Of a stretch of 64,000 nt of DNA, positions 2,428 to 40,000 are shown piece by piece. The DNA is from a virus: the IMG/VR virus record IMGVR_UViG_3300037439_000038, positions 3,944-67,943 of that record; one strand, 5' to 3'. The notes beneath the pieces are model-generated. The model had not been told where the DNA came from. It was given only the letters and a program-made list of their open reading frames with translations, and ran no database searches. Within the stretch, counting starts at the first letter, position 1, and the number at the start of each line of letters is the position of its first letter. The position numbers and the translations under genes are program-made.

Positions 2428-5400
2428 TTATTTCTCCTTAATAATAAACATTTCATCTGCTTGCAGACCTAACCCGCCCCAGTCACTTGTCTTTCCTTGT
2501 GCGACAACAACATCGCCTTTGGATAGATTTTCAATATCATTAGTATAGCTGGGATACTTCCATCGATTAACACCAATCCTAATTGTTTCTCCGTATTCAT
2601 CCTCCACATATAGAGCAACATACTTGATGAGATGATTGTCCTTCAATCTCTTTAGAGCATCACTGTACTCATCAATATTTTCACGCTTACACAACTGCTC
2701 TACTGCATCATAATATTTTTTCTTCTTCAAAACCCCTGTGTGACAAACAATCTGACCGTCTGGAACTATATCTATTGAATAGTGCGTAGGAGTTGGGCAT
2801 CCGAAAGGCAAAGAACGCCTTACCTTCTCAAGAGTCTTACGGGTATTTTGCACCCCAAATGGATCATCTGATTCTACAAAATCTACAATTTTTTGTATCG
2901 TCTTTTTGCCAATTCCCTTGACCTCAACCAAATCATCCCATTCAAGATCGCGAGTGTAAATTTCACCGCGCCAATCAATGATGGCTTGAGCGGTCTTAGG
3001 TCCAATTCCTTCAATAGCTTCAAGTCCTGCAACAATTGTAGGAACTCCACCAGCCTTGGCAAGAGTCCAATCATGACCGGAATGCATAATATCAGGAGGC
3101 AGAACCGCTATCCCCATCCGATCAGCTTCTTGAATAAACTTGGCACGCTTGTCGTTATCTTTACACTTAGTGAATTTTGCTCTGTAAAACGCAGCAGGAT
3201 AGTGAATCTTGAGCCACTGTTGCCAATACCCAATATGAGCATAGGATACGGAGTGTGCGATGTTGAACGCATAACCGGACGCACTAACCATACCGTCCCA
3301 TATTTTTCGTGCGGTATTTTCCGAAAGTCCGTGCGTCCCAGCACCTTTGATGAATCTCTCAAGATACTTGTTAAATTGCGTTGACCCAAGTTTATCATGG
3401 ATAATCTTTCTCATTCGGTTTAGTTCAGCAGGTTCAAAGCCACCCAAATCCCTTAGCACATAAAGGATCTGTTCTTCATACGTGAGCACTCCGTAAGTGT
3501 TAGGCCACTCAGTTGTGTAGTGACGAATAATATCGTGAGCGAATTCCGGTAGTTGTCCAGAGTTTTTATTAGAGATATACCCCTTGTCATTAGCACCAGG
3601 GCGGGATAGAGCATTGACATCTGCCAAGTGCATGAAAGTTGTTGGCTGGACTGCTTTTAGGATGCGCCTGGTGGTGATTCCTTCAAACTGAAAGATTCCC
3701 ATAATTTCACCGTCACGAAATGCTTGCAACGTTGGCTCATCATCTAGAGGAACCTGATATAGATCATCAACAAGAGAAATACCTGCATCTCTGCATATTT
3801 GGGCAATTTCTCCCATTGCTACCAGGGAAAGCAAGTCAACTTTGAGCAAGCCAAGGTAGGCAGCATCTCTTTTATCATATGGAATTGATTGTGCCACACG
3901 TCCTGTCGTAGAAAGTTCACGTTCATAGGTAGCACAAATTTCATCCAAAGATTTGGCATCCCCGCCTGCGATAACCATACCTGCAGCGTGAATGGAAAAA
4001 TTCTGTAGATCGCTTTCTAACTCTATTGCGTAGCGAAATTCTGGGGTTTCTTTAAACGCTTTTGCCACTTCGGGAAATGTGTTGACAGTATCCAATACTG
4101 AGTAGGCAAAGCGAGGATGACCCTCTTCTCTTTCGAGAAGTTTGCTTTTAACCCGATCCACTTTCCATGAGGGAATGTGATAGACCCTTGCAATGTCATC
4201 AATCGCAGATTTGCCCAAATACCTTTGAAAGTTAGCGATATTCGCAACCCTATCACTGCCGTATTTTCTTGCAGCATAATCGAATACCTCATCCCTTCTC
4301 TCATCTTCGAAATCTAGATCAATATCTGGTGGATCAGTTCGCGTTGGATCGAGAAACCTTTCGAAAAGCATAGGGAATTGCATTGAATCGATTTCGGTGA
4401 TCCGTAGGAGATAGCAAACCAAGCTCCCAGCTGCCGAACCTCTTCCTGGTCCAACCGCAATGCCCTGACTTTTGGCCCAGACCACCAGATCAGCGACAAT
4501 GAGGAAATAGTCAGCGAAACCTTCTCTCGCACAGATAGTTTCGTACTCATGCTTGATCCGTTCTTTATAAGCTTTCACGTTTGCGTGAATGTTTTTATTG
4601 TGTTTGACCCGATGATTCCAACCAATCGTAATCCATTCACGTAGAAGGTTTTCTGGCGATTCTACTCCGAATTTTGGTGGGCTTGACTTGGGTAACCGAA
4701 CTCCTGTGCAACGTCTAGCGATTTCCTCAGTTGCGAGTATGGCTTGTTTCGCATCATCTTCTGAGAGTCCTGTTCCTTTAAGATCTTTGAAGATTTCTGC
4801 ATCAGATTTTGGATATGTAAGTAGAATGTCATATTCCCACGAAGCATCAACAGTTTGCACATCTTTTCCGCGATCTGCAGCATGAAGAATCCTTTGAATC
4901 GCATTTTGCTCAGGGAGGGGATAATGCACATCGCTTGTAGCAACAAGGGGAACGCCTGTGTCCCTCGATATTTGGGCCAGTAACGGGTTAAGAACACAAG
5001 TACGCTCAAGCCCAGGAAATCGCTGAACTTCCAAGTAGTATCGATCGCCAAAAATCTTTTGAAACCTTCGTACTCCCCTAACAGCACGTTCATACGCCCC
5101 GTCAGAGGGTTGAAGTGATTTTTCACCGAAATACTTTCCACCCAACAGCGTACAAGATAATGCTGAGTCTGCGCACCCCGAAAGGGCAATGATCCCTTCA
5201 TTCCATTTAACCAAATCTTCCCAGTAAACAGTTGGGCTGTAATAGAATTGCTGCCAAGATTTCGTAACGATACGATTAATATTCTGCAAACCAAGCTGCG
5301 TCATGGCTAGCAAAATCATGTGAGTCTTAGATTGGATGCCGGGTTTACCGAAATAAATTTCAATTCCGAAAATTGGCTCTACGCCTGCCTTTTCGCACGC

Positions 5401-5556: not shown

Positions 5557-6167
5557 AATTTTATATATCCTTTTGATAGATATTCAGGGATTCCCTTAGC
5601 CCTTTCTGATTCCATCCATCCTAAAGCTATATTACAAGATCGGCAAACTAATCCACGAATACATTTTCCACAGCTAACACTCTTTTTATCACCCTTTTTA
5701 TATGGGCAACATTTGTGATCGTGGTCTAAATATAGAATTTTATCATCGGATCTACAAGCTATATTGGCGCATTTGAAGTCTTGGCTTATCAATATGTTTA
5801 TGTATTGAACTCTGGTTATATTAAAATCTGAAAGTTTTCGTATGCTTCCACTTTTTCTAAAAATAATATGTTCATATTCCTTTAGTATAAGTGAACACTT
5901 AGGGCATCTAAAAACATTACCTGTGTGTAAATCTGAGCCAGGAATTGAATAAACAAATTCGTTTTTACATTCATAACATTTAACTAATGGAAGAGGGGTT
6001 CCATGAATCATATTCATTCTTCGATGCTTTGGACAATATTTTTGATATGGTTGTGGTAATTTATCGCACCAGTCTATAGCACAGCCAACGTTATTATCGT
6101 CTAATTCTAAATCTTCCAAAAGCTCAGTATAAGTTAAGCTTTCAAGCAATTCTTCTGCTGTTGTCAT
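5553..6167 (-). CDS. endonuclease VII-like (His-Me finger) nuclease with N-terminal zinc fingers
   Basis: YLDHDHKCC...CGKCIRGLVCRSCNIALG matches recombination endonuclease VII / HNH family; extra CxxC pairs. Confidence 0.85.
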   Translation of the reverse strand: MTTAEELLESLTYTELLEDLELDDNNVGCAIDWCDKLPQPYQKYCPKHRRMNMIHGTPLPLVKCYECKNEFVYSIPGSDLHTGNVFRCPKCSLILKEYEHIIFRKSGSIRKLSDFNITRVQYINILISQDFKCANIACRSDDKILYLDHDHKCCPYKKGDKKSVSCGKCIRGLVCRSCNIALGWMESERAKGIPEYLSKGYIKL

Positions 6168-6209: not shown

Positions 6210-6467
6210 TTAAAAATTTAGGAAAAACCCTATTAAAAGCGATCTATTTTCTTTGCTTATTGGCTCTTCTTTAAGAATTTTTCTAATTGCTCTTAGCTGA
6301 CTATGTCCTTGTTCTGTCAAGTCGATGATTCTAGATATCAAGCCCTGTACTAAATCTTTCTGGACTTGCTCTGATTCCAAATAGTTTTCATTGTTATCGT
6401 TGGTTAGTGATTTAATCATGATAAATTTCCCACTTCCGTTCAACTCGGCGGCGTTTGATTTTAACAT
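6210..6467 (-). CDS. hypothetical protein (AT-rich)
   Basis: 85-aa ORF in an AT-rich patch; start uncertain. Confidence 0.4.
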   Translation of the reverse strand: MLKSNAAELNGSGKFIMIKSLTNDNNENYLESEQVQKDLVQGLISRIIDLTEQGHSQLRAIRKILKEEPISKENRSLLIGFFLNF

Positions 6468-15932: not shown

Positions 15933-16088
15933 TTAATCCATCCTCTTGGATTTCTCTGATTTAGATTCACGGATCTGATTTATCAGATCTGAATGAAACT
16001 CCATCAGTTGTTGGTCAGAAATATGCTTGCCGAATCCACGTTGACGAATCTTTCTAGCACGCACTCGTTTTCGCACCTTGTCTCTCAT
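15933..16088 (-). CDS. small basic hypothetical protein
   Basis: start at MRDKVRK gives ATGA overlap with the upstream stop. Confidence 0.5.
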   Translation of the reverse strand: MRDKVRKRVRARKIRQRGFGKHISDQQLMEFHSDLINQIRESKSEKSKRMD

Positions 16089-16273
16089 GTTTTGCTTACC
16101 GCCAAAGTGCCAAATCGTAAGCACCCCTTTCTGAACAAAGGAACAACGGCACGATCAGCGTTGGTCTCCACTGGAATCTGTTGGTTGTCAATGTTTCTCA
16201 TCAACCAAACTAATTGAAGCATCATGTCCTCTGTGTTCTTAACATGAGGGAGATTGATTGTTACAGAGTACAT
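16085..16273 (-). CDS. hypothetical protein
   Basis: 62-aa ORF starting right after the upstream stop. Confidence 0.55.
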   Translation of the reverse strand: MYSVTINLPHVKNTEDMMLQLVWLMRNIDNQQIPVETNADRAVVPLFRKGCLRFGTLAVSKT

Positions 16274-16274
16274 T

Positions 16275-16430
16275 TCAGATCACCCCTTTCTCAACACGGC
16301 AATCTACACACTTACAATATCTGTGGTGTTTGCCATCAAAACCAGGTGTAACCGGCTCATTCATTATCTTGTTCCGGTGCCTCCGCTTTTGTTGAGCAAA
16401 TTTGAAGTCTCGCAACAAATTCTCGAACAT
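16275..16430 (-). CDS. small hypothetical protein (51 aa)
   Basis: translated by hand MFENLLRDFK...HHRYCKCVDCRVEKGVI; preceded by GAGAGGATGGAAAA. Confidence 0.65.
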   Translation of the reverse strand: MFENLLRDFKFAQQKRRHRNKIMNEPVTPGFDGKHHRYCKCVDCRVEKGVI

Positions 16431-16461
16431 TTTTCCATCCTCTCTGCTTTGCACTACCTGT

Positions 16462-16507
16462 GCGCTCCCCGCCGCAGACTCGAACTGCGGTGAATTCCAA
16501 ACGGGGA
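16462..16507 (-). ncRNA. mini-tRNA element B
   Basis: TCCCCG/CGGGGA stem, linker TTTGGAATTCA, CCGCAG-TTCGAGT-CTGCGG, trailer GCGC. Confidence 0.8.
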
Positions 16508-16518
16508 CAATATAACTT

Positions 16519-16677
16519 TCAGAGTGTTGATTGGTTAGCTGTCTTTTTCATGCGACCCGCAACTTTCAAGACTTCATCTGAGATAAAATCTTTTCGGTTT
16601 TGTTGATGTACCAGTCTAACCAGTTCTTCTGCGTAGTCGAACATTTCATCTGCCAGGGTCTTTACTGAATACGTCAT
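16519..16677 (-). CDS. small hypothetical protein (52 aa)
   Basis: translated by hand MTYSVKTLADEMFDYAEELV...; SD GGAG upstream. Confidence 0.55.
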   Translation of the reverse strand: MTYSVKTLADEMFDYAEELVRLVHQQNRKDFISDEVLKVAGRMKKTANQSTL

Positions 16678-16691
16678 CCTATCTCCTTCTG

Positions 16692-16844
16692 TTACCTTGC
16701 TGCCGTGAACTTGTCAGTGTCTGAAAAGCCTTGGGACAGACCGGAATAGTGTCGTGGTAGAGGACAAGCATTATCACTTGTTCTATGTTCACCCAAGGTT
16801 GAACAACACTTTTCACAAAATGTATCCAATTGGTGTTCGCTCAT
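16692..16844 (-). CDS. small Cys-containing hypothetical protein
   Basis: start at MSEHQLD (ATGA overlap), CEKCC...H..C motif. Confidence 0.5.
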   Translation of the reverse strand: MSEHQLDTFCEKCCSTLGEHRTSDNACPLPRHYSGLSQGFSDTDKFTAAR

Positions 16845-17119
16845 CAGCCAATCTCCTTCAAGATTGCCAGAACCATCTTGCGCGCCAATACTTCTGGTAC
16901 CCAAGCATGAATTTCTGCAAACAGTTGCATATGTCCTGAAATCATTGCTCCTACTTGCCAGGACATATGATCATTAGCGCGAACAGCTTTGGCGGTAACC
17001 TTGCCATTTGAAACCGCTTCTACTAAGCAACGATTCCTGACATAAACTTCTACCTCCGGTGGTACTTGAGTGTGGTAGTCAACATCTTTCACTTCAATTC
17101 CTTTCTTAGCAAAGGACAT
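16844..17119 (-). CDS. hypothetical protein
   Basis: 91-aa ORF in operon context. Confidence 0.6.
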   Translation of the reverse strand: MSFAKKGIEVKDVDYHTQVPPEVEVYVRNRCLVEAVSNGKVTAKAVRANDHMSWQVGAMISGHMQLFAEIHAWVPEVLARKMVLAILKEIG

Positions 17120-17421
17120 TCGACCACATCAGACATGAATTGACCAACCTCAATGATCCGCACGGCATCTCCGACAATTCCAGCTTTGTGCAGAGCTTCC
17201 CAAACCCATTCGTTTTCAGAATAATTCTTGATGAAAACGTTTCCAGGTTCGGGTTTTTCACCGTACTGAGCAAGGTTGATGGTAGCGATGCAAAGCTGTT
17301 CTCCCTCAATACTTTTCAGTATCAAGGCGATCGATCCGTCGTTGTAAAAAGATTTTGCAATCTTAATACCCCTTGGTTCATTGATGTATTTGGTTTTGAA
17401 CTGTCTGTTCAAATCCAACAT
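17089..17421 (-). CDS. conserved phage hypothetical protein (DUF4313-like)
   Basis: YNDGSIAL..EGEQLCIATINL..IKNYSENE pattern; preceded by GAGAGGATGGGAA. Confidence 0.6.
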   Translation of the reverse strand: MLDLNRQFKTKYINEPRGIKIAKSFYNDGSIALILKSIEGEQLCIATINLAQYGEKPEPGNVFIKNYSENEWVWEALHKAGIVGDAVRIIEVGQFMSDVVECPLLRKELK

Positions 17422-17447
17422 TTCCCATCCTCTCTGTTTTGTGTCTA

Positions 17448-17491
17448 GCGTGGGTGCCAGGGACTCGAACCCTGGTGTCTGCCAGTCACCC
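17448..17491 (-). ncRNA. mini-tRNA element C
   Basis: GGGTG/CACCC stem, linker ACTGGCAGACA (D-loop-like TGGCAGAC), CCAGGG-TTCGAGT-CCCTGG, trailer ACGC. Confidence 0.8.
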
Positions 17492-17499
17492 TTTCCGTT

Positions 17500-18678
17500 C
17501 TATGCGTTCTGCAAAACCCATTCGGGTTTATTCAGAACTTCGGCCATTGCTGAAACCACGTTGTTGTCAAAACGTTTCGTGGCTCCCCGAATCGTTGCAT
17601 CCATATTCTTTTGGAAGCGGTAGAAATCATCACCATTTAGTTGACGTTTCCGTGTCCAGTGAGTATTGAATGCATGAAGCAATCCAAGGGCAGTACCCTT
17701 GTAATCTGAGCACATCGGATCACGAGTGTATGTATCCCAGAACGCTTCCCTGCGAGTCTTTGCACGGCCAATCTTGGTTGGCGTCGGATTGTCGTCACGG
17801 TCGGGCAACGGAATGATTATATCCATTACCTTAATCGCTTGCCCCCTGGTCACTTTCACGCTGACCAATTCTTTGTGTTCGGCAACGATATCTTTGGCGG
17901 TATCAACCAAGATCTTCATTGAGTCGCGAACCTCTTGTATCCGGTCCCAATCAAGTGATCTTGCAGTGTGTTTCGCTGTGTAAATCATGCCAGCGTTTGC
18001 CGACTGCCTTAAAGCACAATCGCGAGTGTTGTCACACACCACATACAGAGATTGACGCGAAATAGTGGTTGCCATCGAACCGTCTAATGAGGTCGAAATC
18101 ATCATGAACGGAACGAAATTCAAACCAGTACTTGAATCATGCACGCTTTCTGGCAAAGCAACTTGAACGTAAGCTTGCAAGCCTTGTTTCAGAAGTCCAG
18201 CACCAAGAATTGAAAGGTTCTGTGCTCCAATTACTTTGGCCTGCAAGCCAAGTAGCCACTCTTTGTAGTCATGGATTTTATAACCCGATCCATGAGTTGC
18301 TAGATGTGCATGAGTATCTGAGCGCACAATGCCCTGTTCAAGACCGTGAAATTCATAGTCATCTAGTAGTTCGCCATCGGTGCCAGGCTTTTTACGCCAA
18401 ACACCAGTAGGCATAACTTTGAACGGTTGACCTTGTGGCCCAAAGAAATTCGCGTCCTTCTTATCACATGGAATAAGGTTCGCTTTAGGGACTGCCTCAG
18501 CTTCCCAGTTGAACAGGCGGGCAATGACAGTATCCATTTCGATGTAATCATCAAAGTGGTTATCTGCCCATCCTTTTCGTCTGCGAAGCTCAGGATCATT
18601 GTGCCATGCTGCTGGTCGATTGGCACAATTGCCAACCAGTACAAAGCGATTCAATGTCTCCCTAGTTTCTCTACTCAT
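17500..18678 (-). CDS. DUF932 / TIGR03299-like phage protein
   Basis: FNWEAE..P, VRSDT, ISTSLDGS, VVCDNT, YTAKHT, GTALGLLHAFN motifs; start set behind GAGAGGATGGAA. Confidence 0.8.
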   Translation of the reverse strand: MSRETRETLNRFVLVGNCANRPAAWHNDPELRRRKGWADNHFDDYIEMDTVIARLFNWEAEAVPKANLIPCDKKDANFFGPQGQPFKVMPTGVWRKKPGTDGELLDDYEFHGLEQGIVRSDTHAHLATHGSGYKIHDYKEWLLGLQAKVIGAQNLSILGAGLLKQGLQAYVQVALPESVHDSSTGLNFVPFMMISTSLDGSMATTISRQSLYVVCDNTRDCALRQSANAGMIYTAKHTARSLDWDRIQEVRDSMKILVDTAKDIVAEHKELVSVKVTRGQAIKVMDIIIPLPDRDDNPTPTKIGRAKTRREAFWDTYTRDPMCSDYKGTALGLLHAFNTHWTRKRQLNGDDFYRFQKNMDATIRGATKRFDNNVVSAMAEVLNKPEWVLQNA

Positions 18679-18713
18679 TTCCATCCTCTCTTGTTGTCGC
18701 TCATTGTGAGCGT

Positions 18714-18812
18714 CGTGCCTGTCGGGGAATCGAACCACCGACAACTCAATATTCGCATATACGAAAGCTCTTGTCTAGAGCCATGTTTCATTGAGTTGTA
18801 ACCGTTACAGGC
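18714..18812 (-). ncRNA. tRNA-like element D with a large inserted domain
   Basis: GCCTGT/ACAGGC acceptor, AACGGTTA linker, 9-bp CAACTCAAT/ATTGAGTTG helix carrying two hairpins, T-loop TTCGATT, trailer ACG. Confidence 0.75.
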
Positions 18813-18855
18813 GATCACGACAATTCTGACCACAATGTCCTTGCCGTGTTACGGA

Positions 18856-19074
18856 CTAAGCGAGCTTGACGCGATCGCCCATACCGTAAATGAAAACACG
18901 AGATCGTTTGCCTCGCTTGGGAACGGGGATCAAATACACGTGAACCTCTTTACCATCAACAACTTGTGGTATGCGGGTCACCTCCCAAGTTCCATCAGCA
19001 TCGGTGAATTGATCACCAACACGCAACCTACGAACGTAGGCAGTTGCGCGAAGCTCTGCTGTCATGTTTGCCAT
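18856..19074 (-). CDS. small beta-barrel (SH3-like) hypothetical protein
   Basis: LRVGDQF motif; start behind GAGGATGGAA. Confidence 0.65.
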   Translation of the reverse strand: MANMTAELRATAYVRRLRVGDQFTDADGTWEVTRIPQVVDGKEVHVYLIPVPKRGKRSRVFIYGMGDRVKLA

Positions 19075-19113
19075 TTCCATCCTCATTTCTTTTGTGTGCC
19101 AAGGGGTTTGGCA

Positions 19114-19159
19114 GCGTGCCCGGTAGAGGAATCGAACCTCTACCAAGAACCATTCGGGC
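19114..19159 (-). ncRNA. mini-tRNA element E
   Basis: GCCCG/CGGGC, linker AATGGTTCTTG, GTAGAGG-TTCGATT-CCTCTAC, trailer ACGC. Confidence 0.82.
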
Positions 19160-19335
19160 TATTTACACTTGTGCTCTCTTCTCAGGTTGTACGGGATAGA
19201 TCTATCAAACCAAACAAACTGTCCCAGTGAGCTTTTCAACCAGCCACAGTAAAGGCACTCCACATAGAAGCATCGAATGCCAAAAGCCATTTTGTACCTG
19301 ACTTTTACTTTATCCGATTTTTGGTGTGTAACCAT
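19159..19335 (-). CDS. small hypothetical protein with CxxC
   Basis: ECLYCG motif; start uncertain (internal Met chosen). Confidence 0.4.
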   Translation of the reverse strand: MVTHQKSDKVKVRYKMAFGIRCFYVECLYCGWLKSSLGQFVWFDRSIPYNLRREHKCK

Positions 19336-19555
19336 GCGGTCCCATCGTTCCGGGGATACCGTCAATTGGTGTCCAAAAGTTGCCTGGCACAGGTGGATTG
19401 GCTGCACACGGTGACCAAGGTACTGTAGCAATATAGCCACAACCGGGATTCGGAGTCTGTGTTTGTGCGTTGGATCTAATCGCTAAACCTATTGATGCAC
19501 CAATGATTAACGATGCAATCATTAGCGACACAACCGCACTGATTTTATTGTTCAT
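19310..19555 (-). CDS. secreted or membrane-anchored small protein
   Basis: signal-peptide-like MNNKISAVVSLMIASLIIGASIGLAI followed by Pro/Gly/Cys-rich domain; start behind GAGAGGATGGA. Confidence 0.7.
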   Translation of the reverse strand: MNNKISAVVSLMIASLIIGASIGLAIRSNAQTQTPNPGCGYIATVPWSPCAANPPVPGNFWTPIDGIPGTMGPHGYTPKIG

Positions 19556-19582
19556 TCCATCCTCTCTTTGTGAGTGTTTCCC

Positions 19583-19628
19583 ACGCTCCCGCCGTTGGAA
19601 TCGAACCAACGTGAAAACCATTGCGGGA
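19583..19628 (-). ncRNA. mini-tRNA element F
   Basis: TCCCGC/GCGGGA, linker AATGGTTTTCA, CGTTGG-TTCGATT-CCAACG, trailer GCGT. Confidence 0.85.
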
Positions 19629-19637
19629 CACCACGAT

Positions 19638-19790
19638 TTACATATGACCGATCTCTCCGTAGTCGGAGGAATAACTCATTTGAACTGAATGAGATCCGCT
19701 AAAGCTTTTGATAACTTTTTCGACCTCTTTCTTAAGTTCCTTTGCTGTAGCTGCTGTTTCATGTTCTCCAACATGAATTACGATTCTCAT
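19638..19790 (-). CDS. small hypothetical protein (50 aa)
   Basis: translated by hand MRIVIHVGEHETAATAKELKKEVEKVIKSF...; start overlaps the upstream stop. Confidence 0.55.
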   Translation of the reverse strand: MRIVIHVGEHETAATAKELKKEVEKVIKSFSGSHSVQMSYSSDYGEIGHM

Positions 19791-20194
19791 TCATGATCCT
19801 TTGATTTGTGGCCGTATTTCTTACAGACTCCACACGGTTCATAATCTCCATGATGAAAATATGCTTTCTGAATTACCGTGTCCCACCATGCATCTGAGAA
19901 CGATTCCTCGTATGCGTCGATTAGTTTATCGTGGTAGTCCTTCGGTACCGCAGGATCAAAGCCAAGTTCTTTGAGAACGCTGTAAGTTGTTGGGCCACCG
20001 GCAAATTCACCAGACAGCGGAGAGGGACAAAGATCGAGTATCTCGGGATCACCGTCTTCAAATCCCTCAATGATCTTGGCGCAGTACTCTTTTGAGTTAG
20101 TTGAGTCAACAACCCAAGCACCTAACATTTCGCCGTATTCCTTGCCCATTTCTACTGCCTTGCTGGTCATTTCGTCAATGCCAACTGTGCTCAT
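19787..20194 (-). CDS. acidic hypothetical protein (PLSGE motif)
   Basis: start MSTVGID behind GAGAGGATGGAAAA. Confidence 0.7.
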   Translation of the reverse strand: MSTVGIDEMTSKAVEMGKEYGEMLGAWVVDSTNSKEYCAKIIEGFEDGDPEILDLCPSPLSGEFAGGPTTYSVLKELGFDPAVPKDYHDKLIDAYEESFSDAWWDTVIQKAYFHHGDYEPCGVCKKYGHKSKDHE

Positions 20195-20227
20195 TTTTCC
20201 ATCCTCTCTTGTGCCCATCGTGGGCAA

Positions 20228-20271
20228 CGTTCCCCGGTAAGGAATCGAACCTTACGAAAACCATTCGGGGA
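20228..20271 (-). ncRNA. mini-tRNA element G
   Basis: TCCCCG/CGGGGA, linker AATGGTTTTC, GTAAGG-TTCGATT-CCTTAC, trailer ACG. Confidence 0.85.
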
Positions 20272-20279
20272 CACCATGA

Positions 20280-20591
20280 TTAACTCACCAATAACCCTTC
20301 AACACTCTTACGCCAGCTTTCCAGGTTTTCCACTCGTTCCTCAAGTGTTCTTTTATCCTGCTCAGGCGAGACCGACGGAATTTCGCTGTGCTCATTGGTT
20401 TTTCCCTTCCCATGAAACATGTTGTGATTCTCGCTTGGCTTACCAATTGCTTTGCTCACAGATCCGTTGATATTCAACGTCATTCGACCATGGTTATCTG
20501 TGAGAACAGTGATTGAATCACCGTCGTCCACCTTGGCAAGAAAACCCTTGAGATAGTAAAGGTCTCGACCTTCAATCACGACTTCATGCAT
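20280..20591 (-). CDS. hypothetical protein
   Basis: start MHEVVIEG behind GAGGATGGA. Confidence 0.65.
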   Translation of the reverse strand: MHEVVIEGRDLYYLKGFLAKVDDGDSITVLTDNHGRMTLNINGSVSKAIGKPSENHNMFHGKGKTNEHSEIPSVSPEQDKRTLEERVENLESWRKSVEGLLVS

Positions 20592-20632
20592 TCCATCCTC
20601 ATTTCTCAACTGCGCCAAGACATTTGACGCAC

Positions 20633-20675
20633 AGTACCCGCTCATGACTCGAACATGAGTGTATGCCTTTCGGGC
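20633..20675 (-). ncRNA. mini-tRNA element H
   Basis: GCCCG/CGGGT, linker AAAGGCATACA, CTCATG-TTCGAGT-CATGAG, trailer ACT. Confidence 0.78.
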
Positions 20676-20682
20676 TGTCTTA

Positions 20683-20886
20683 CTAGCTAAATTCCTCTTC
20701 TATCATTGGTTGATAGTTCGACCATGGCTCAGGTTGCCCACGGTCGAAAGAATCCAGCATTTTGTTGAGCAGACCAAGAGCATATGCAGCTTTGTCTAGC
20801 GCCATAGCGCCAAGATAAAAACTAATATCCGCAATTGCCTTGTGTATCTGCTTCTTTCGGCTTAGATCTGGCTGAATGTTTTTCAT
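20683..20886 (-). CDS. hypothetical protein
   Basis: start MKNIQPD gives ATGA overlap with the upstream stop. Confidence 0.55.
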   Translation of the reverse strand: MKNIQPDLSRKKQIHKAIADISFYLGAMALDKAAYALGLLNKMLDSFDRGQPEPWSNYQPMIEEEFS

Positions 20887-21095
20887 GCGGAAGCCGTTCC
20901 TTTGACGTATCCGAAACTGTCCAAGCCGCAAGCCTCAAAGAAGTAGTCATACCTGAACTTTGAAGCATCACGTTTGAGCACGTCGGCTGTTTTTCTGACA
21001 CAATGAGCGACCGTATCAGAGCAGGTGTCATCTCTGGACAAAGCAAGCGAAAACTCTTCTGCTAGTTCGCAATACAGTTTTCTGGTTGCAGCCAT
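20883..21095 (-). CDS. conserved small phage protein
   Basis: LKRDASKFRYDYFFEACG resembles the common phage '..DNPRFD..RF..ACG' motif; start behind GAGAGGATGGAAAA. Confidence 0.7.
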   Translation of the reverse strand: MAATRKLYCELAEEFSLALSRDDTCSDTVAHCVRKTADVLKRDASKFRYDYFFEACGLDSFGYVKGTASA

Positions 21096-21126
21096 TTTTC
21101 CATCCTCTCTTGTGCCCGTTTGGGCA

Positions 21127-21172
21127 GCGTAGCCAGGGGAGGAATCGAACCTCCCTGAAAACCGTTCTGGCT
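21127..21172 (-). ncRNA. mini-tRNA element I
   Basis: AGCCAG/CTGGCT, linker AACGGTTTTCA, GGGAGG-TTCGATT-CCTCCC, trailer ACGC. Confidence 0.85.
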
Positions 21173-21180
21173 TACCATGA

Positions 21181-21384
21181 CTAAATCAACTGCACTCTGG
21201 TGTCAGCTTTGAATCGACGCCGTGTCTGATTTGATGGCGTATCGATCTTGACTATCGGAACCTGAATCGTTCCGTCGTCACGACGACCAACAGGAAAACC
21301 GTTGCACTGCAATCCCTCTCCGGTACGGGGATCAACAAAACGGTCGCCCTTGCGCAGACGTGCCATATTGCTTGACTTTCTCAT
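21181..21384 (-). CDS. small beta-barrel (SH3-like) hypothetical protein
   Basis: LRKGDRFVD motif; start behind AGAGGATGGAAACC. Confidence 0.65.
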   Translation of the reverse strand: MRKSSNMARLRKGDRFVDPRTGEGLQCNGFPVGRRDDGTIQVPIVKIDTPSNQTRRRFKADTRVQLI

Positions 21385-21424
21385 GGTTTCCATCCTCTAT
21401 CTTACTACTACGTCTGGTGACGTA

Positions 21425-21468
21425 TGGTGCGCCTAGTGGAATCGAACCACTACGAAAACCGTTGGCGC
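21425..21468 (-). ncRNA. mini-tRNA element J (encoded ACCA end)
   Basis: GCGCC/GGCGC, linker AACGGTTTTCG, TAGTGG-TTCGATT-CCACTA, trailer ACCA. Confidence 0.85.
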
Positions 21469-21474
21469 TCTTGC

Positions 21475-21744
21475 CTAATTCAAAATGGCTAGGTCGAACT
21501 TGTGGGAGTAAACATTGCGACTGCAGTTGTCGCACATGAATTCCTGTTTGTCATCACCTGTGCAATCGTCTGGGCAAGCGATAACCTTGTGACCGTCTGG
21601 AAGTTCGGCAGCGCTTGCCTCTACGCCTGCTTCCCATTCGGCACGATACTCAGGACCATAAAAATCGAGTCCTGATGTATCCCCATTGGCAATTGCGCAA
21701 GCGCAATCATCGCAGCAATGTAGTTCGCCAATGACAGTTGCCAT
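21475..21744 (-). CDS. Cys-rich acidic hypothetical protein (first early gene)
   Basis: CCDDCAC..IANGD and CDNC motifs; start behind GAGAGGATGAGGAAAA. Confidence 0.7.
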   Translation of the reverse strand: MATVIGELHCCDDCACAIANGDTSGLDFYGPEYRAEWEAGVEASAAELPDGHKVIACPDDCTGDDKQEFMCDNCSRNVYSHKFDLAILN

Positions 21745-21850
21745 TTTTCCTCATCCTCTCATTTTTGGGGAAAACCCCAGGTTGTGACCAGGGCATTAAG
21801 AGTACATAATGCCTGGTAGAAAGCCCATTAATGGGCCTGTAGTCCATTCT

Positions 21851-21904
21851 GAGACACCTTATAAAAAAGTGACTATTATAGGCCCTAAGAAAAACTGAAG
21901 TCTC
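21851..21904. promoter_or_regulatory. candidate bidirectional SigA-type promoter
   Basis: minus-strand TATAAT (21880-21875) with GAGACT 18 nt upstream; plus-strand GAGACA-17 nt-TATTAT (21851-21879); GAGAC/GTCTC inverted symmetry. Confidence 0.55.
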
Positions 21905-22690
21905 TGAGCATTCTAATGCGTGCCGTTATGGCGATTTATTCTGTTGAACCACTGGCCTGCATAGATCCTATGCAAACTAGTGGCGCAACGGAAAACCGTT
22001 ACGCCGAGGATGGATGGAATTAGGTTGCAGTGCAATCGATTTGGCGCGGCCAACTTGACGAATTGTCTTGTCTACCAACGTCTTACAAACCTTGCTTACT
22101 CTGCTAACCTCGCGACATAGATCGTCGCGTGCTGCTCACGGTGGTTGAATACTATCCCGATCAAACCAGGTCACTAGCTGTCGCTATATGCCGGGCACCT
22201 ATTTGGTGACTCCCGTTGTCTCTCGGTTATCGGCAGATGGAATGCGGGTAGCTCTTACGCTTAAACACGTTGCAGCAGAACACTATTCAGAATATCTATC
22301 GCACGAAAACCGTTGCGAGACAATAACTCTCGTATCGGTAGACTTGCACTTGATATTCGGTTTTAGATGGATGCCACCCACCATAGGGAATCGCTTTGAC
22401 TACAGACACTCATTCAATCCAGCGTGTTTAGCATGGTGGATTGATCCTGGTGTACCGTCATACCCTCCCGGTTTCCGGCCGGTCGGGAACGCTTGCTTCC
22501 GATATACGATTGCGATTGCTCATACCGACCGCTCACATCATTGGAACGATAGAACAATCTCGCTTTGATCAAACGTCGGCGCGCTACCGTCCAACTAAAA
22601 CGATTCTAGGTTTGCGACCATTGTCGAATCCTGGCACTCACGCGCGTACGTTTGAACTACGGAAGTAGTTCGCTTGCGATTCCCTATTTA
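21886..22690. ncRNA. candidate large structured non-coding RNA (~800 nt)
   Basis: no credible ORF; nested long-range helices (perfect 12 bp 22383-22394/22676-22687; 22070-22076/22337-22343; 22030-22035/22344-22349; 22569-22576/22648-22655) and many hairpins. Confidence 0.65.
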
Positions 22691-23002
22691 GTTCTCAAAT
22701 AAACACACTTCAACCTCTATACTACCAAAACCCCACCAAACCGCAGGTGAATGAGATAATCTGTTATTAGAATGAGGTCTAATAGGACCTATAATCCCAG
22801 GTCAGAGCATGTGACGGAAATCACACTATTCATTTCACACTGTTGGTCCAACTGTTGATTCTACTGTAAGACCAACGGGACTCAGTTAATCCTAGCTAAC
22901 TAAATAGGTACGAATCATCTTGTGCCACAAGGCATTTGAAATTTGAAAACCCTTGCACAACAACAACTTTCAAACTTGACACCTGTCAAGTTCAACTTTC
23001 GC

Positions 23003-23027
23003 AAAATGGTACATCAGTACCACTTTT
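23003..23027. terminator. possible bidirectional terminator at the end of the late operon
   Basis: TGGTAC-ATCA-GTACCA hairpin flanked by short T tracts on both strands; weak. Confidence 0.35.
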
Positions 23028-23535
23028 ACAACTTTTCAGCATCGGCAATCTGACGCTCCCGCCAAGCTCGATAGCGTTCGCTCATGTCCGGTCTGGAATT
23101 GTTCTCTTGAGAACGATTAGATGAATCCCCGGAAACAAAATCCTCAACAGGGACCGCAACAGGTACAGTTTGCTCAATTGGAAGGTTTCTCTTCTGCCAC
23201 CTAGTAGCAACCAGTGCAACGGCTTTGGCGCGATCCATTCCTGTTTGACGAACCAATGAAGAAACTGCTAACTGTTGCAGCACTTCACCTTTGAAGTCGA
23301 TTCTGGTATCCTCCCAAGGTTCTCCAGTAAGTAGTTCTAGGAATGCTCTGTATTTACATTCGTTAACACAAAGGGCTGCAACGGTTCCCTCCAGTACCCC
23401 AATGTATGTAGCAGTATCAGAATCTACTTCTAGTGGCATGGGAGCGGCCTTTAATGGTACAAATTCTACGGATTCAGTCATCCTTTTGATCCTTTCCATA
23501 CTGAATGAATTGCTTTGGTGGAGTTTGTATTTCAC
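23026..23535 (-). CDS. hypothetical protein
   Basis: long ORF after lysin B; start may be internal (MTESVEF). Confidence 0.65.
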   Translation of the reverse strand: MKYKLHQSNSFSMERIKRMTESVEFVPLKAAPMPLEVDSDTATYIGVLEGTVAALCVNECKYRAFLELLTGEPWEDTRIDFKGEVLQQLAVSSLVRQTGMDRAKAVALVATRWQKRNLPIEQTVPVAVPVEDFVSGDSSNRSQENNSRPDMSERYRAWRERQIADAEKL

Positions 23536-23621: not shown

Positions 23622-24560
23622 TTAGATCCCTGGGACCGCATAACCCAAACCTTTCGCTAGATACTTCGCACTTCTGATGGAATGAAAGATTGGCGAAAAA
23701 CCGGGAATGATGTGCCAATCGTGATAATGACCATGAGCGCCACTAGATGCAAACCTAGCCGCTGCGCTAATTGTGTTGACTGCTTTAGTACTTGCGCTGA
23801 TAAAGAAAGGAATGTTGCCTATGACCCACATTGGACTAGTCGGATTAGCACCAGCAAGTTTCATCAGATCAGTCTTGCCGACGTTAATTATCAAGTCCTG
23901 CACAGCTTTCCATGGATTATTGAACTGCAAATCTGTCAATGTAGCATAGAAATCAAACAAGTAACTATTAGGATTTGCGTTAGCGTACATATCGTCATAG
24001 AAAGCGTAATCACGCCACAAAACCCCAGGCGGGGTTTCCACTAAAGTATCTTTGGCAATTCCATGCCAGGGCAACATGTTTCCGTTGGGAAATGTCCTAT
24101 CTTGGAATCTGCATGGGTTACCGAAAGTATAAACAGCCTTTAATTGATGCAATCGATGCTTAAGACGTCCACTAGCAAATTCTCGCACTAGTTCTGAAAT
24201 CAGCTGTGCCCCTTGGGAATACCCGCCCAAGACTATATTGTCGTCCATTGGCAATGTCTCAATTTGAGCAACGGCAAAAGTTACCCCATCATCAACAGAT
24301 ACTTCATAACTCGGTGCTCTCAAAGCACTAAAGGGATTGAAACCCGATGGACCCATTGCTGGAATTGGACCAAATGAGCCAGAGTATCCCGGTGGACAAA
24401 GCATAAATGGTTCGAAAATATTCCTAGGTAAGCGATCTGGAAATCTATCATCAAATAACCAAAGACCAAGTCCAACTGGCTTTTTCGGAGCAGGATTTTC
24501 ATTACGGAACATTTCTACTTCCCATGTTCCTGGTGCCCAAAGATAAAAAATTTTCTTCAT
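23622..24560 (-). CDS. lysB: lysin B (cutinase-like mycolyl-arabinogalactan esterase)
   Basis: GGYSQGA nucleophile motif, YTFGNPCR, DDMYA and C-terminal HGHY; located in the lysis cassette. Confidence 0.9.
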   Translation of the reverse strand: MKKIFYLWAPGTWEVEMFRNENPAPKKPVGLGLWLFDDRFPDRLPRNIFEPFMLCPPGYSGSFGPIPAMGPSGFNPFSALRAPSYEVSVDDGVTFAVAQIETLPMDDNIVLGGYSQGAQLISELVREFASGRLKHRLHQLKAVYTFGNPCRFQDRTFPNGNMLPWHGIAKDTLVETPPGVLWRDYAFYDDMYANANPNSYLFDFYATLTDLQFNNPWKAVQDLIINVGKTDLMKLAGANPTSPMWVIGNIPFFISASTKAVNTISAAARFASSGAHGHYHDWHIIPGFSPIFHSIRSAKYLAKGLGYAVPGI

Positions 24561-37096: not shown

Positions 37097-40000
37097 ATCC
37101 GAATGCCCCCAATCCAGCAGACTTAATAGTAAACATTGCATCATCCATTGTATCTCGTGGATCTTGGCCTGGCCCTTGATAAATCACGAAGCTATTAGCC
37201 ACGGCGGGTCTGTCGGGATAATCCTTTCCAAGTGCTCTTGGAAGTGTGTTGAAAACATTCTTCATTTGCGGATTTTCAGAAGTGTAAGCTTGAAGCTGTC
37301 CTGTCGTTTCATCAAGCAAAAACTTCATATCCTGAGCACCGGGGAATCCTAGCCAACTAGTAAGAAATCGACCAAGATACTTAGTGGCAATTCTGTATCC
37401 CTCTTGAGCTACATCTATTCCGGTATTTACTGCTGTAATCACTTGTGAGACAAGCTGTAACATTCCCCCAGCAGCAGAGGTAGCTCCAAAATCTGATCCA
37501 CCCGTGAATTGTCCTGCAAATGAAGCGATTCCACCAGCAGCTTGGAAAGCTTTTGCAAAGAAATCTAATCCAGTTTGGAAGTTATCAATTAGATTCATGA
37601 TATCTTGAGTGTTAGAAACACCGCGAACTAAAGTACCTGTTGTATCCTTCAGTGCCCCAATATATTTGATTCCAGCATCTATCGTTGCGAAAATATCACT
37701 AGCGATACCAGAGACACCGTTAGCAAGTGTAGTAGCTTGATCAATAGCATTTGGACCTTCTTTAAGTCCAAACTGACCCATCACCTGAGAACGACTCTGC
37801 CCCAAAGCATCTACAAGAGGTTGATTACCTTGCTTTTCTGCATCGATAATTCGACTATCGATGTCTTGCAACCACTTAACAGCCCCCTCTTGATCTTGAG
37901 GCATTTGTCCCAAAAGATCGCGTTGGTTCTCCAATCCTGGCGGGAGTCCAGGCAAACCGTTTTGACCCCAAGGATTAATTTGCTGAATTTGACTGTTAGG
38001 CAATGAAACTGGCACCGTTCCTGGTGGTTGACCGGCTCGGTTGCCGTGCTGGTTTGCCTGCCCCCACTGCTGCCACACATCGCCCGTTAGCCCGCCTGGT
38101 TGAGGCGTAGCAGGGAGATTTCCTAGGATGCTAGCCACTGACCCACCAGGGCCGGAGAAATTAGCCTGAGCGCCTTTATCAAAATGCACGTCTACATGAT
38201 TGAAGTGCCCACCAGCCTCAAATCCAACGCCTTCCTGACCAGGATAGCGACCTTGGTTGCGCCAGATTGAATACTTAACTCCTAGTTGAGGTCCGAATTG
38301 TTGGAAGAAAGAATTGATCTCATCGCCAAGGCCCATTTGATCAGGACTAATCGGAATGTCAATAGATAGACCAGCGTCGTGAGTATTTGGTGCAGTACCC
38401 GTATCTCGACTACCTCCGATAGTTCCACGAATCTGTTCACCCCAGATTTGTTGAACAAAAGTTGCGGCTTGTCGGGAAAGTGCCCCAGAGGGAATAGAAC
38501 CTGTATCTTTAAGAATTGACGGAGAAGAGACGGCATTACTTATGGCAGAAGTAAATTGAGCAGAGAAAGAATTAAGATACTGTTGTGCAGCTTCTTCTGC
38601 TCTCTGACGATGACCCACATTTGATGGATGAAGTGGTCCACCAATTGAAACTTGAGTTCCTAATTGCGTTGGGTCAGTAAAGGATTCAGGTGTTAAACCA
38701 CGTTCTCTAGCTAAATCGAAATAAGCATCAATGTTGTCTTGAGCATTTGTGATAGAACCAGGTCTATTGCCCCAAGTGCCAGGAGTGAATTGGAATACTC
38801 CCCTAACATCACCTGATCCATCCTGATTACCGCCATTTGCAAGAGGATTGAGACCACTTTCGCCAACAGCTTGAATAACAAACTGATTAGCTTGCTCTCT
38901 TGTATATCCAAGAGACATAGCTTTTTGAATAATATAATTAGCAGTTTGTTGCTTACCAGGATTTGCATCCAAAGCACTTGGCGCAGCACCTCTTCCGGTT
39001 GGAGAACCAAAAGTAGTATTTTGAAGCAAAGTTGGATTCCAACTACCAAGAGCAGAACCACCAGGCTTAAAATTAGGATCTTGCTCATATGATTTCGGGA
39101 AAAGACGACCGCCGCTGAAATCATTTGCAAGAGTTGCAACACTGATACCAATATCGAAGAGTTGCTTACCAAAATCAAAAATTGATTTACCAAAGTCTGA
39201 AAGTTCTTGAAGATCTTTGACCATAGTTTCCACTTGATCAAACAGGGGAGTTGAGGCACCACCTGCCATAGCAGAAACAGCACCTTTAGCTGTCCCTGTT
39301 TCAGAAGCTATACCTTCTGCAAAAGCTTTCGTAAAAGCCTTACCACGGTACAGAGTCCAGCCCTTACCAGATAAAGGACCGTATTTAGCTGGCGACCCTG
39401 GCATTCCCCCTGCAGCTATTTCAGCTAATCTAAGTATTGCATTACGAACTTCTTCGCTACTTGAATTAATACCCTCTGCAAAGGCTTCCGACAAAGACTT
39501 TCCAGAAGCTTCCGCGTTTGAGATATAAGTCTGCAGAAGCGATTGCACCTGGGGGTCAAGTGAACTAGCATCTTTAGCTATAAAATCTTTAATTTGTTGA
39601 TCTGTGGCATTTTTCAATGAGTCTGGAAGCGTGAATTGTGTACTGCTACTTCCACTTCCGGGAGATGGTAAGCCTAGATCCCTTGTGGGATTGAAATCTC
39701 TATACCAAGGAACTGTTGAATTAGGAGCAGTAGAAGTACCTGAGACAGGAGGTAATCCAAGTATAGGCTTTGGGGCACCTGGTTGATTGAAAAACGACCC
39801 TTGGCTAGTAATGCTACTACCAGCAGAAGCACCAGGTAAACCCGAAACATCAAGTGTTGTAGGAATTTTCAAAGTAGAACCAGGACCACCAGTAATTTCA
39901 TTAATGATATCTTCTTTGGTGGTCATCAAATCAAGAACTGAATTTAGCTTAGCAGGATCATCTGCAAAAGTTTGTTCAATGATTGTCTTGGGATCAGCAC

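Follow-up and report, generated by a model that had tools for sequence, protein, structure and literature searches.

Trans-acting RNAs that pair with Shine-Dalgarno regions through C-rich seeds include RNAIII of Staphylococcus aureus (514 nt) and the mycobacterial RNAs 6C and B11, and occlusion of the ribosome-binding site is the usual outcome of such C-rich antisense seeds. In phage T4 a protein, RegA, serves as translational repressor of many early mRNAs. Among mycobacteriophages, a 13-nt start-associated sequence (SAS) was published for cluster K by Pope et al. in 2011 with its role unexplained (PMC3203893), as was still the case in 2024 (PMC11373665), and the origin RNAs of cluster A, encoded beside parABS and opposite to parA, are required for the prophage to persist like a plasmid (PMC7157519). 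Here we describe a locus in a 64,000-nucleotide stretch of viral DNA (the window, meaning the whole stretch analysed) that is best read as the founding example of a new large phage RNA family with a new combination of features, and whose RNA may act on the start sites of early genes.

The window makes up most of a 72.4-kb viral contig and is present in three sediment-metagenome DNA runs. Its minus strand carries every gene, and since these include lysin A, holin-like genes and a cutinase-type lysin B (23622-24560), the virus is taken to be a phage of a mycolic-acid actinobacterium; its closest cultured relatives are the Mycobacterium phages Fowlmouth, MrMiyagi, Cuke and Indlulamithi. Between the last gene of the lysis cassette (23026-23535) and the first small early gene (21475-21744) lies a gap of 1.28 kb (21745-23025) devoid of minus-strand ORFs, even wider than the gene-free block that an earlier note on this DNA had pointed out. 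A 126-aa ORF on the plus strand would fit a locus without any RNA, be it the remains of a gene, a coding region with an unusual code or a structure due to chance, but the ORF had no match in Pfam or PHROG and was not conserved in relatives. Six-frame comparison of the gaps gave similar scores in every frame, and their longest ORFs vary by genome in position, length and strand. No frame is conserved although the gap sequence is, and the block is therefore conserved non-coding sequence. The protein-coding reading was dropped on these grounds and, given also the extensive compensatory changes described below, the chance that there is no RNA here is negligible.

Homologous non-coding gaps were found in 12 genomes, namely Fowlmouth, MrMiyagi, Cuke, Indlulamithi and eight metagenomic relatives, by way of the flanking proteins (the 169-aa flanking protein in the case of the metagenomic relatives). 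All share the gene order of the window, with a gene-free gap of 0.9-2.0 kb at the same place that GenBank records show as empty or filled with doubtful small ORFs. Aligned end to end, the gap of the window is 67% identical to that of relative L117, 70% to L121 and 62% to L118 and L122; identity is 69% over the 3' half with L124 and 58% over 1.1 kb with Indlulamithi, and conservation of the gap is about equal to that of the neighbouring genes. A second sub-group (group B: Fowlmouth, MrMiyagi, Cuke, L076/L116 and L123) has only the 3' third in common with the sub-group of the window (group A). The 169-aa protein, encoded upstream of the RNA, was rejected as its obligatory partner, as its homologue lies among tail genes in Gordonia phage Suzy and it is present without the RNA in phage Onyinye.

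In gene direction, the locus comprises the following features, given in coordinates of the window:

23003..23023, minus strand: terminator hairpin of the late operon with U-run (GGTAC..GTACC followed by a T-run), directly after the last late gene, which is that of the lysis cassette (23026-23535)
22976..22989, no strand assigned: perfect palindrome TTGACAGGTGTCAA, a candidate operator or -35 element, conserved in Indlulamithi and L117
22920-22930, near the palindrome: inverted repeat TTGTGGCACAA, conserved in Indlulamithi and L117
22727..22749, minus strand: small hairpin with U-run just upstream of promoter P1 (in L117, stem CACCTG/CAGGTG followed by GTTTT)
22719..22727, minus strand: promoter P1, extended -10 TGG TAGTAT, at the same position in most of group A
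21944..22713, minus strand: the predicted RNA, ending after ~730 nt with the first 3' hairpin (21982) or after ~770 nt with the second (21944)
22704..22713, minus strand: invariant 5' sequence UUGAAGUGUG, containing the predicted transcription start and beginning 6 nt after the -10
22676..22687, minus strand: 5' arm of the 12-bp helix that closes the variable 5' domain; covaries
22414..22444, minus strand: hairpin UCAAUCCA/UGGAUUGA of the 5' domain (L117, UCAUUCC/GGAAUGA; L121, UGAAUCAA/UUGAUUCA)
22383..22394, minus strand: 3' arm of the 12-bp helix, partner of 22676-22687; covaries
22126..22263, minus strand: conserved core, a multi-helix junction with joining bases CGAUAAC, GAGUC, CCCG, a GACA loop and GUGaCCUG, in both sub-groups
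22111..22129, minus strand: hairpin of variable length, replaced at the same place in relatives by longer hairpins of other sequence
between this hairpin and the motif, minus strand: further helical region
22006..22019, minus strand: invariant motif UUCCAUCCAUCCUC, complement of the early-gene ribosome-binding site
21982..22005, minus strand: hairpin directly after the motif, 6 of its 10 pairs doubly changed, with several G.U that only the minus strand permits
21944..21988, minus strand: second, longer 3' hairpin, 20 pairs, 96% paired, 11 with double changes
21873..21881, minus strand: promoter P2 CTATAATAG, presumed promoter of the early operon, TATAAT in 7 of 8 relatives
after P2, minus strand: conserved leader, then the first early gene
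15938..21758, minus strand: about 11 early genes, the proposed targets, each with GAGAGGAUGGAAA 3-10 nt before its start codon

All helices listed in the earlier note were found, including the 12-bp pair 22383-22394/22676-22687, and the 805-nt block folds more stably than dinucleotide shuffles (z = -2.9 for the plus and -4.0 for the minus strand, from only 20 shuffles). The comparative evidence is strong and upholds the idea of a large, ornate non-coding RNA on the scale of GOLLD and ROOL. The consensus fold of the whole RNA in 7 close relatives comprises 198 pairs, 95 of which show double changes, compared with 47 +/- 5 in shuffles (0 of 500 reached the observed value), and 87% of positions are paired, compared with 34-41% in slid controls. 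Across both sub-groups, the core (~140 nt, window 22263-22126) forms six helices around conserved joining bases, with compensatory changes on both sides in 18 of 22 pairs; its cells are paired in 98.5% of cases versus 66% in shuffles (again 0 of 500 as high), and pairing falls to 25-36% when the partner is slid by 1-3 columns. This junction with its conserved joining bases suggests a bound partner or tertiary structure. The 12-bp helix is among the best supported, with AAUCGC/GCGAUU changing to GAUAGC/GCUAUC, GGUGAC/GUCACC or GAGAAAA/UUUUCUC in relatives (compensatory changes in L121, L122, L124 and Indlulamithi), and covariation likewise backs the hairpins 22414/22437, 22111-22129, 21958-21974 and 22654-22671. 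Others of the proposed helices fared less well: 22569/22648 is kept in the alignment as judged by eye, but the consensus fold pairs 22645-22649 elsewhere, and the nested pairs GTGCAA/TTGCAC and GTCTACC/GGTAGAC, present in the window, are not supported, with just one side conserved in relatives. Because MAFFT alignments of the 5' domain are poor, its structure beyond the named helices is uncertain.

The family is present in at least 13 actinobacterial phages. A covariance model of the core, R1, scored the window at 132 bits and the 11 other training loci at 90-140 bits, matches that hold by construction, and gave 108-116 bits for the Fowlmouth and Cuke copies L002/L003; the matched core is syntenic, between the lysis cassette and the early genes. 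No R1 match was obtained in cluster H phages, Adephagia, Onyinye, Suzy or 11 bacterial contigs, and DNA searches of GenBank phages with the gaps of the window and Indlulamithi returned self matches only. Scans with the motif pattern gave 4 true matches among 92 in IMG/VR, 1 among 15 in JGI metagenomes and 0 among 11 in GTDB genomes, the remainder being due to chance. Rfam searches of the window, at the gathering threshold and at E <= 10, yielded only two chance-level matches, a miRNA and a snoRNA, and those of five homologous loci at E <= 1 yielded nothing within the RNA. GOLLD, ROOL, RNase P, tmRNA, group I/II introns, OLE and HEARO were thus without a covariance-model match in Rfam, in line with the earlier note as regards RNase P and tmRNA. 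The string GACAGAACC, which we take to resemble part of the RNase P conserved region, occurs in two group-B members and not family-wide, and an RNase P-like reading was dropped, as no Rfam model matched. A role of the RNA as complement of a mini-tRNA linker was also rejected: the AACGGUUUUC strings have the same sense as the linker on the minus strand, one being unconserved and the other lying within a covarying stem. A search of the literature for this RNA or these phages found nothing relevant. Large, intricate RNAs are uncommon in bacteria and phages, and new biology has come with each new class; the present family is new in that it lacks any Rfam match.

According to the earlier note, the RNA would be made rightward, from the plus strand and antisense to the genes. 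For the strand test, helices were defined with G.U pairs forbidden, and G.U (valid on the minus strand) and A.C (valid on the plus strand) were then counted. Read on the minus strand, the core contained 15 G.U versus 2 A.C, the long 3' hairpin (21944..21988) 8 versus 1, and the hairpin after the motif (21982..22005) about eight G.U versus two A.C or C.A. Counts were balanced in the poorly aligned 5' domain (21 G.U versus 18 A.C), and the strand of this domain is therefore judged from the promoter and from its continuity with the remainder of the RNA. The promoter P1 itself, with TGG followed by TAGTAT, TATAGT or TATTAT in 7 of 8 relatives from group A (the hexamer of L119 lacks the TG), reads only leftward, as its reverse complement contains no -10 hexamer, and the sequence UUGAAGUGUG is identical in 8 of 8 group-A sequences save for its last base (A in L118 and L119). 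In group B (Fowlmouth, MrMiyagi, Cuke and L123), UUU stands directly after the post-motif hairpin. Because of the G.U bias, the extended -10 promoter and this UUU, the RNA is read leftward, with the genes, and we consider a conserved structured RNA in this direction very probable. Production from the plus strand is highly improbable: although a promoter-like GAGACA-17-TATTAT ends at 21879 on that strand, and the hairpin at 22654-22671 shows A.C mismatches in L117 and Indlulamithi that are G.U on the plus strand as well as plus-strand GNRA loops in three sequences, the -35 of the plus strand is not conserved, a terminator-like plus-strand hairpin (21921-21933) would end the transcript after about 45 nt, and the counts in the core and the long 3' hairpin both favour the minus strand. 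The G.U pairs that had been cited as possible only on the plus strand did not hold up either: in the register of 21949/21977 that covaries, an A is bulged out and two U.G pairs occur that only the minus strand allows.

The RNA lies between the terminator of the late operon and the early promoter P2. In relatives, one to three hairpins of the late-terminator type are found, with compensatory changes (Indlulamithi, GCGGAC/GTCCGG). At the other end, the first 3' hairpin has a 3' arm with two possible partners, its own 5' arm and a downstream copy of the latter that forms the outer part of the second hairpin, and the three segments change together among relatives, a pattern in the alignment that suggests two alternative conformations. 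Group A has no canonical U-tailed terminator after the 3' hairpins, and for this reason the RNA may be a leader instead of a separate molecule. As a cis-acting leader of the early operon, it would be the first part of P1 transcripts that read through P2 into the early genes, and the fold and alternative 3' pairing would govern read-through, processing or downstream translation in cis; the RNA may also be released by tRNA-processing enzymes acting on tRNA-like spacers. Besides the missing terminator and the two possible partners of the 3' arm, this fits the tRNA-like elements that follow in cluster H and in L117, L121 and L118; in the window, a tRNA-like element lies upstream of most early genes that bear GAGAGGAUGGAAA. 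The leader reading is nonetheless unlikely, as a conserved promoter, P2, separates the RNA from the first gene, the hairpins of group B have terminator-like U-runs, and eleven genes carry the target site, not the first alone. We infer that the RNA is a discrete transcript. An interaction between the invariant 5' end and the 3' motif was considered as well and dropped, the predicted energy being only -2.6 kcal/mol.

The most conserved element of the RNA is a 12-nt motif: the first 12 nt of UUCCAUCCAUCCUC are identical in 13 of 13 genomes, some of which share ~58% identity or none detectable, and in all 13 the invariant UUCCAUCCAUCC is followed by a covarying hairpin. UUCCAUCCAUCCUC is the complement of GAGAGGAUGGAAA, the ribosome-binding site that is repeated before about 11 early genes and only there, a match that was noticed post hoc and involves Shine-Dalgarno regions that are purine-rich anyway. 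On the gene strand of the window, TTCCATCC occurs as a single copy, within the RNA, and exact GAGGATGG in 10 copies, all from 21397 to 15945 and each standing 3-10 nt ahead of an early start codon. In front of the first early gene, the GAGAGGAUGGAAA site is present as a close variant. The motif covers the site in two overlapping registers (UUCCAUCC with GGAUGGAA, and CCAUCCUC with GAGGAUGG), with exact complementarity over 8-9 bp. Relatives contain 1-10 copies of GAGGATGG per locus (4-10 save for 3 in Indlulamithi and 1 in MrMiyagi), all but one of them downstream of the RNA. Twelve of the 13 RNA-carrying genomes have the exact site, and the thirteenth, L119, has a one-base variant (GAGGGUGG / GAGAGGGUGG) that still pairs via one G.U; Fowlmouth uses GGAUGGAA and L123 AGAGGAUGGAA. 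The motif is invariant, which leaves no room for motif-target covariation to be seen within the family. The related cluster H phages Oaker and Predator have no RNA core, no motif and no such site. The duplex of motif and site is predicted at -16.7 kcal/mol, compared with -12.6 kcal/mol for the site with a mycobacterial-type 16S tail. In thermodynamic folds the mean unpaired probability of the motif is 0.54, versus 0.38 for the whole RNA, and the motif is unpaired in only about half of the homologues.

A leftward structured RNA might also have another job: it could be a scaffold or a ribozyme, act as decoy for a host factor or defence, or form a GOLLD/ROOL-like multimer. The match between motif and ribosome-binding site would then be incidental or reflect a shared third partner. 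Conserved cores of several helices whose joining bases are invariant typically belong to RNAs that have a tertiary structure or bind a partner, the size is far above what antisense pairing needs, and predicted folds of some homologues have the motif paired. We nevertheless regard such a job as the less likely course, if one to be reckoned with, since the most conserved element, of 12 nt, matches the one repeated start-site motif that the same genomes have, is missing where that start-site motif is missing, and has analogous complements in three other phage groups.

These groups use other motifs. In cluster H, the repeated motif at the start sites of early genes is another one, GAACGGACAAAA (ACGGACA), and the 3' end of the 1.3-1.5-kb gap of these phages has GUCCGUCCG between two covarying hairpins. 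Adephagia, of cluster K, has a single reverse copy of the SAS in the non-coding gap between gp92 and gp93, where it forms the 10-nt loop of a strong hairpin. The early genes of Onyinye share CCAACAACC, the complement of which is GGUUGUUGUUGG, and one GGTTGTTGTTGG is found in the gap. In each of the three, the complementary copy is single, on the gene strand and in a non-coding stretch. Four lineages with four motifs in the same arrangement make chance less likely, although these are observations and not tests.

Action of the RNA through pairing with the early start sites has close to an even chance of being correct, and the fuller proposal that it thereby controls translation of the early genes as a set, which we put a little short of even, is the best explanation of the locus. 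It builds on the observed non-coding nature, conservation, structure, strand, promoter and motif of the locus and on the complementarity and co-occurrence of the motif with the start sites. The RNA would be transcribed in gene direction from its own extended -10 promoter, after the late terminators and before the early promoter, and would consist of three parts. The first is the variable 5' domain, which the 12-bp helix closes, and the second the conserved core with its several helices; the third is a 3' module, where the invariant, C/U-rich UUCCAUCCAUCCUC stands between the body of the RNA and the two hairpins. The motif would base-pair with the GAGAGGAUGGAAA of the early genes, and this pairing would set their translation as a group. 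The likeliest direction would be occlusion of the ribosome-binding site, serving shut-off or timing, while the folded body may give stability or bind a protein or the ribosome. Activation or recruitment would suit the host-type promoter alongside early genes, and also the weak Shine-Dalgarno character of the cluster H motif. An antisense function of 8-9 bp does not by itself account for a conserved fold of 700 nt. A more far-reaching version, which we hold to be improbable, takes the RNA as one half of a private translation-initiation code, in which several actinophage lineages, namely this family, cluster H, cluster K and Onyinye, would each match the motif of their start sites to a complementary one carried by a non-coding RNA of the phage; the folded body would attach itself to the ribosome or to some other machinery of the host, and the RNA would recruit or gate early mRNAs independently of the host anti-Shine-Dalgarno. 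If true, the RNA would supply an orthogonal anti-Shine-Dalgarno and would not be a simple repressor.

Control by pairing would provide a candidate RNA partner for the start-associated sequences of mycobacteriophages, the role of which has been open since 2011, and several phage clusters unrelated to one another may work along the same lines. The RNA occurs in cultured phages of Mycobacterium smegmatis (Fowlmouth, MrMiyagi, Cuke and Indlulamithi) for which engineering is routine, and the proposal can therefore be tested directly. For annotation, 'empty' gaps of 1-2 kb after the lysis cassette, together with the doubtful small ORFs inside them, call for re-annotation as an RNA gene.

Compared with the systems introduced above, the RNA resembles those of cluster A origins in that both are non-coding, several hundred nt long and located outside the annotated genes of a mycobacteriophage (PMC7157519). 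A replication origin with a structured primer RNA, on the lines of ColE1 RNA II or cluster A prophage origins, would also agree with the place of the RNA at the junction of the late and early arms, a frequent place for origins. Mycobacteriophages are documented to have origins that depend on RNA, with non-coding RNAs of ~400-500 nt (PMC7157519), but the RNA described here has neither sequence or model similarity to known origin RNAs nor a comparable context, with no parABS or replication gene adjoining; moreover, the composition profile has no skew switch at the RNA, and the match between motif and ribosome-binding site would be left unexplained. The RNA-primed origins of cluster A are thus a less likely model, and an origin at this place is very unlikely.

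With GOLLD and ROOL, the RNA shares its size class (~0.6-0.8 kb), its occurrence in phages, its many covarying helices, a predicted transcription unit of its own and the abundance of tRNA-like elements nearby; it differs from both in having no match to either Rfam model even at E <= 10 and in its hosts, which are Mycobacterium and relatives. Its invariant, presumably single-stranded motif, which matches start sites of the phage itself, has to our knowledge no described counterpart in GOLLD or ROOL. Like RNAIII, 6C and B11, the RNA has a C/U-rich segment complementary to the ribosome-binding sites of several putative targets and would likewise need no Hfq, and like RNAIII it is large and multi-helical. 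It has no homology to these RNAs, however; it is phage-encoded, regulation by it is a proposal, it has one tandem seed beside 3' hairpins where they have several loop seeds, and its putative targets are one dedicated, co-transcribed gene set with an identical site. The logic would be that of T4 RegA, in which a single phage product recognises a shared element at many early start sites, except that RegA is a protein and the candidate regulator here is an RNA that would act by base pairing.

The early-gene motif itself comes closest to the SAS of cluster K, in that both are repeated 10-13-nt motifs that extend past the Shine-Dalgarno core, stand 3-10 nt before the start codons of non-structural genes only, and have one orientation (PMC3203893). 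Such a SAS-type motif is present here, but as GAGAGGAUGGAAA in place of GGGAUAGGAGCCC and in other phages; the window does not have the cluster K consensus GGGATAGGAGCCC, its motif reading GAGAGGATGGAAA. Judged by its sequence, the motif is an analogue of the cluster K SAS and not a member. The two also differ in that for cluster K only the reverse copy in Adephagia hints at an RNA partner, whereas a candidate partner is identified here.

Most early intergenic spacers of the window (15945-21475, minus strand) share one recurring layout, in which a tRNA-like element is followed by a short hairpin, then by CACAAGAGAGGAUGGAAA and finally by the start codon. The element itself consists of an acceptor stem, an AAYGGUUUUC linker and a T-arm (GGUUCGAUUCC), and one copy ends in ACCA. 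Further elements were found in the window and in L117, L118 and L121, close metagenomic relatives that carry the RNA.

Features in the window and its close relatives (A2, alignment; P1, promoter of the RNA)
L117 7719-7785: type II hammerhead ribozyme, scoring 48.7 bits (gathering score 37), in a spacer between early genes
L117 ~6290-6380, L121 and L118 (A2 columns 2200-2290): additional tRNA-like T-arm elements (GGTTCGATTCC)
Window 22900-23000 (A2 columns 250-480), upstream of P1: conserved palindrome TTGACAGGTGTCAA and inverted repeat TTGTGGCACAA
Window 22900-23000 (A2 columns 250-480), upstream of P1: repeated TTTCAAA/TTTGAAA units

In other spacers, the position of the L117 hammerhead is taken by a tRNA-like element instead. 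This exchange would fit cleavage of the early transcript in its intergenic spacers. Between P2, the presumed early-operon promoter, and the first early gene, L117, L121 and L118 have about 300 nt of additional leader; both this leader and the additional T-arm elements are absent from the window. The palindrome, inverted repeat and TTTCAAA/TTTGAAA units upstream of P1, which are duplicated two or three times in relatives, probably bind proteins, either to regulate P1 or as markers of the boundary between late and early genes.

Across the whole window, the gene strand is strongly depleted in CCATCC, with 5 copies versus 30 on the other strand, and two of the five lie in the RNA motif, the invariant stretch complementary to the early ribosome-binding site. 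The depletion might reflect avoidance of self-pairing with early start sites, or it might merely result from codon and purine bias.

Features in non-coding gaps of other phages (SAS, start-associated sequence)
Fowlmouth (L004) 3650-4472: hypothetical ORFs, genes 37 and 38, in the homologous gap
Cuke (L005) 3612-3761: hypothetical ORF, gene 34, in the homologous gap
Onyinye (L138) 5639-5650: one copy of GGTTGTTGTTGG, in a non-coding gap ~100 nt upstream of the first early gene
Oaker (L099) 4101-4109 and Predator (L100) 3330-3338: GUCCGUCCG, flanked by two covarying hairpins, close to the 3' end of the gap
Adephagia (L126) 38683-38695 (JF704105, record ~58682): its sole reverse-orientation SAS, in the gp92-gp93 gap

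The Fowlmouth and Cuke ORFs overlap the conserved RNA, show no frame conservation between the two phages and are likely over-annotations. Onyinye early genes have a common leader, CCAACAACC (5 copies). In cluster H phages (Oaker and Predator), a distinct conserved non-coding gap, 1.3-1.5 kb long, lies 3' of the lysis cassette. Its GUCCGUCCG carries the complement of ACGGAC in tandem; ACGGAC forms the core of GAACGGACAAAA, a motif recurring upstream of cluster H early genes, and ACGGACA occurs 13 times in Oaker. The start of Predator gp42 may be miscalled, since as annotated it falls inside this region. In Adephagia (cluster K), the reverse SAS sits in a strong hairpin (z = -4.2), within its 10-nt loop, and is complementary to 9 nt of the 16 forward SAS copies; it may represent an anti-SAS RNA.
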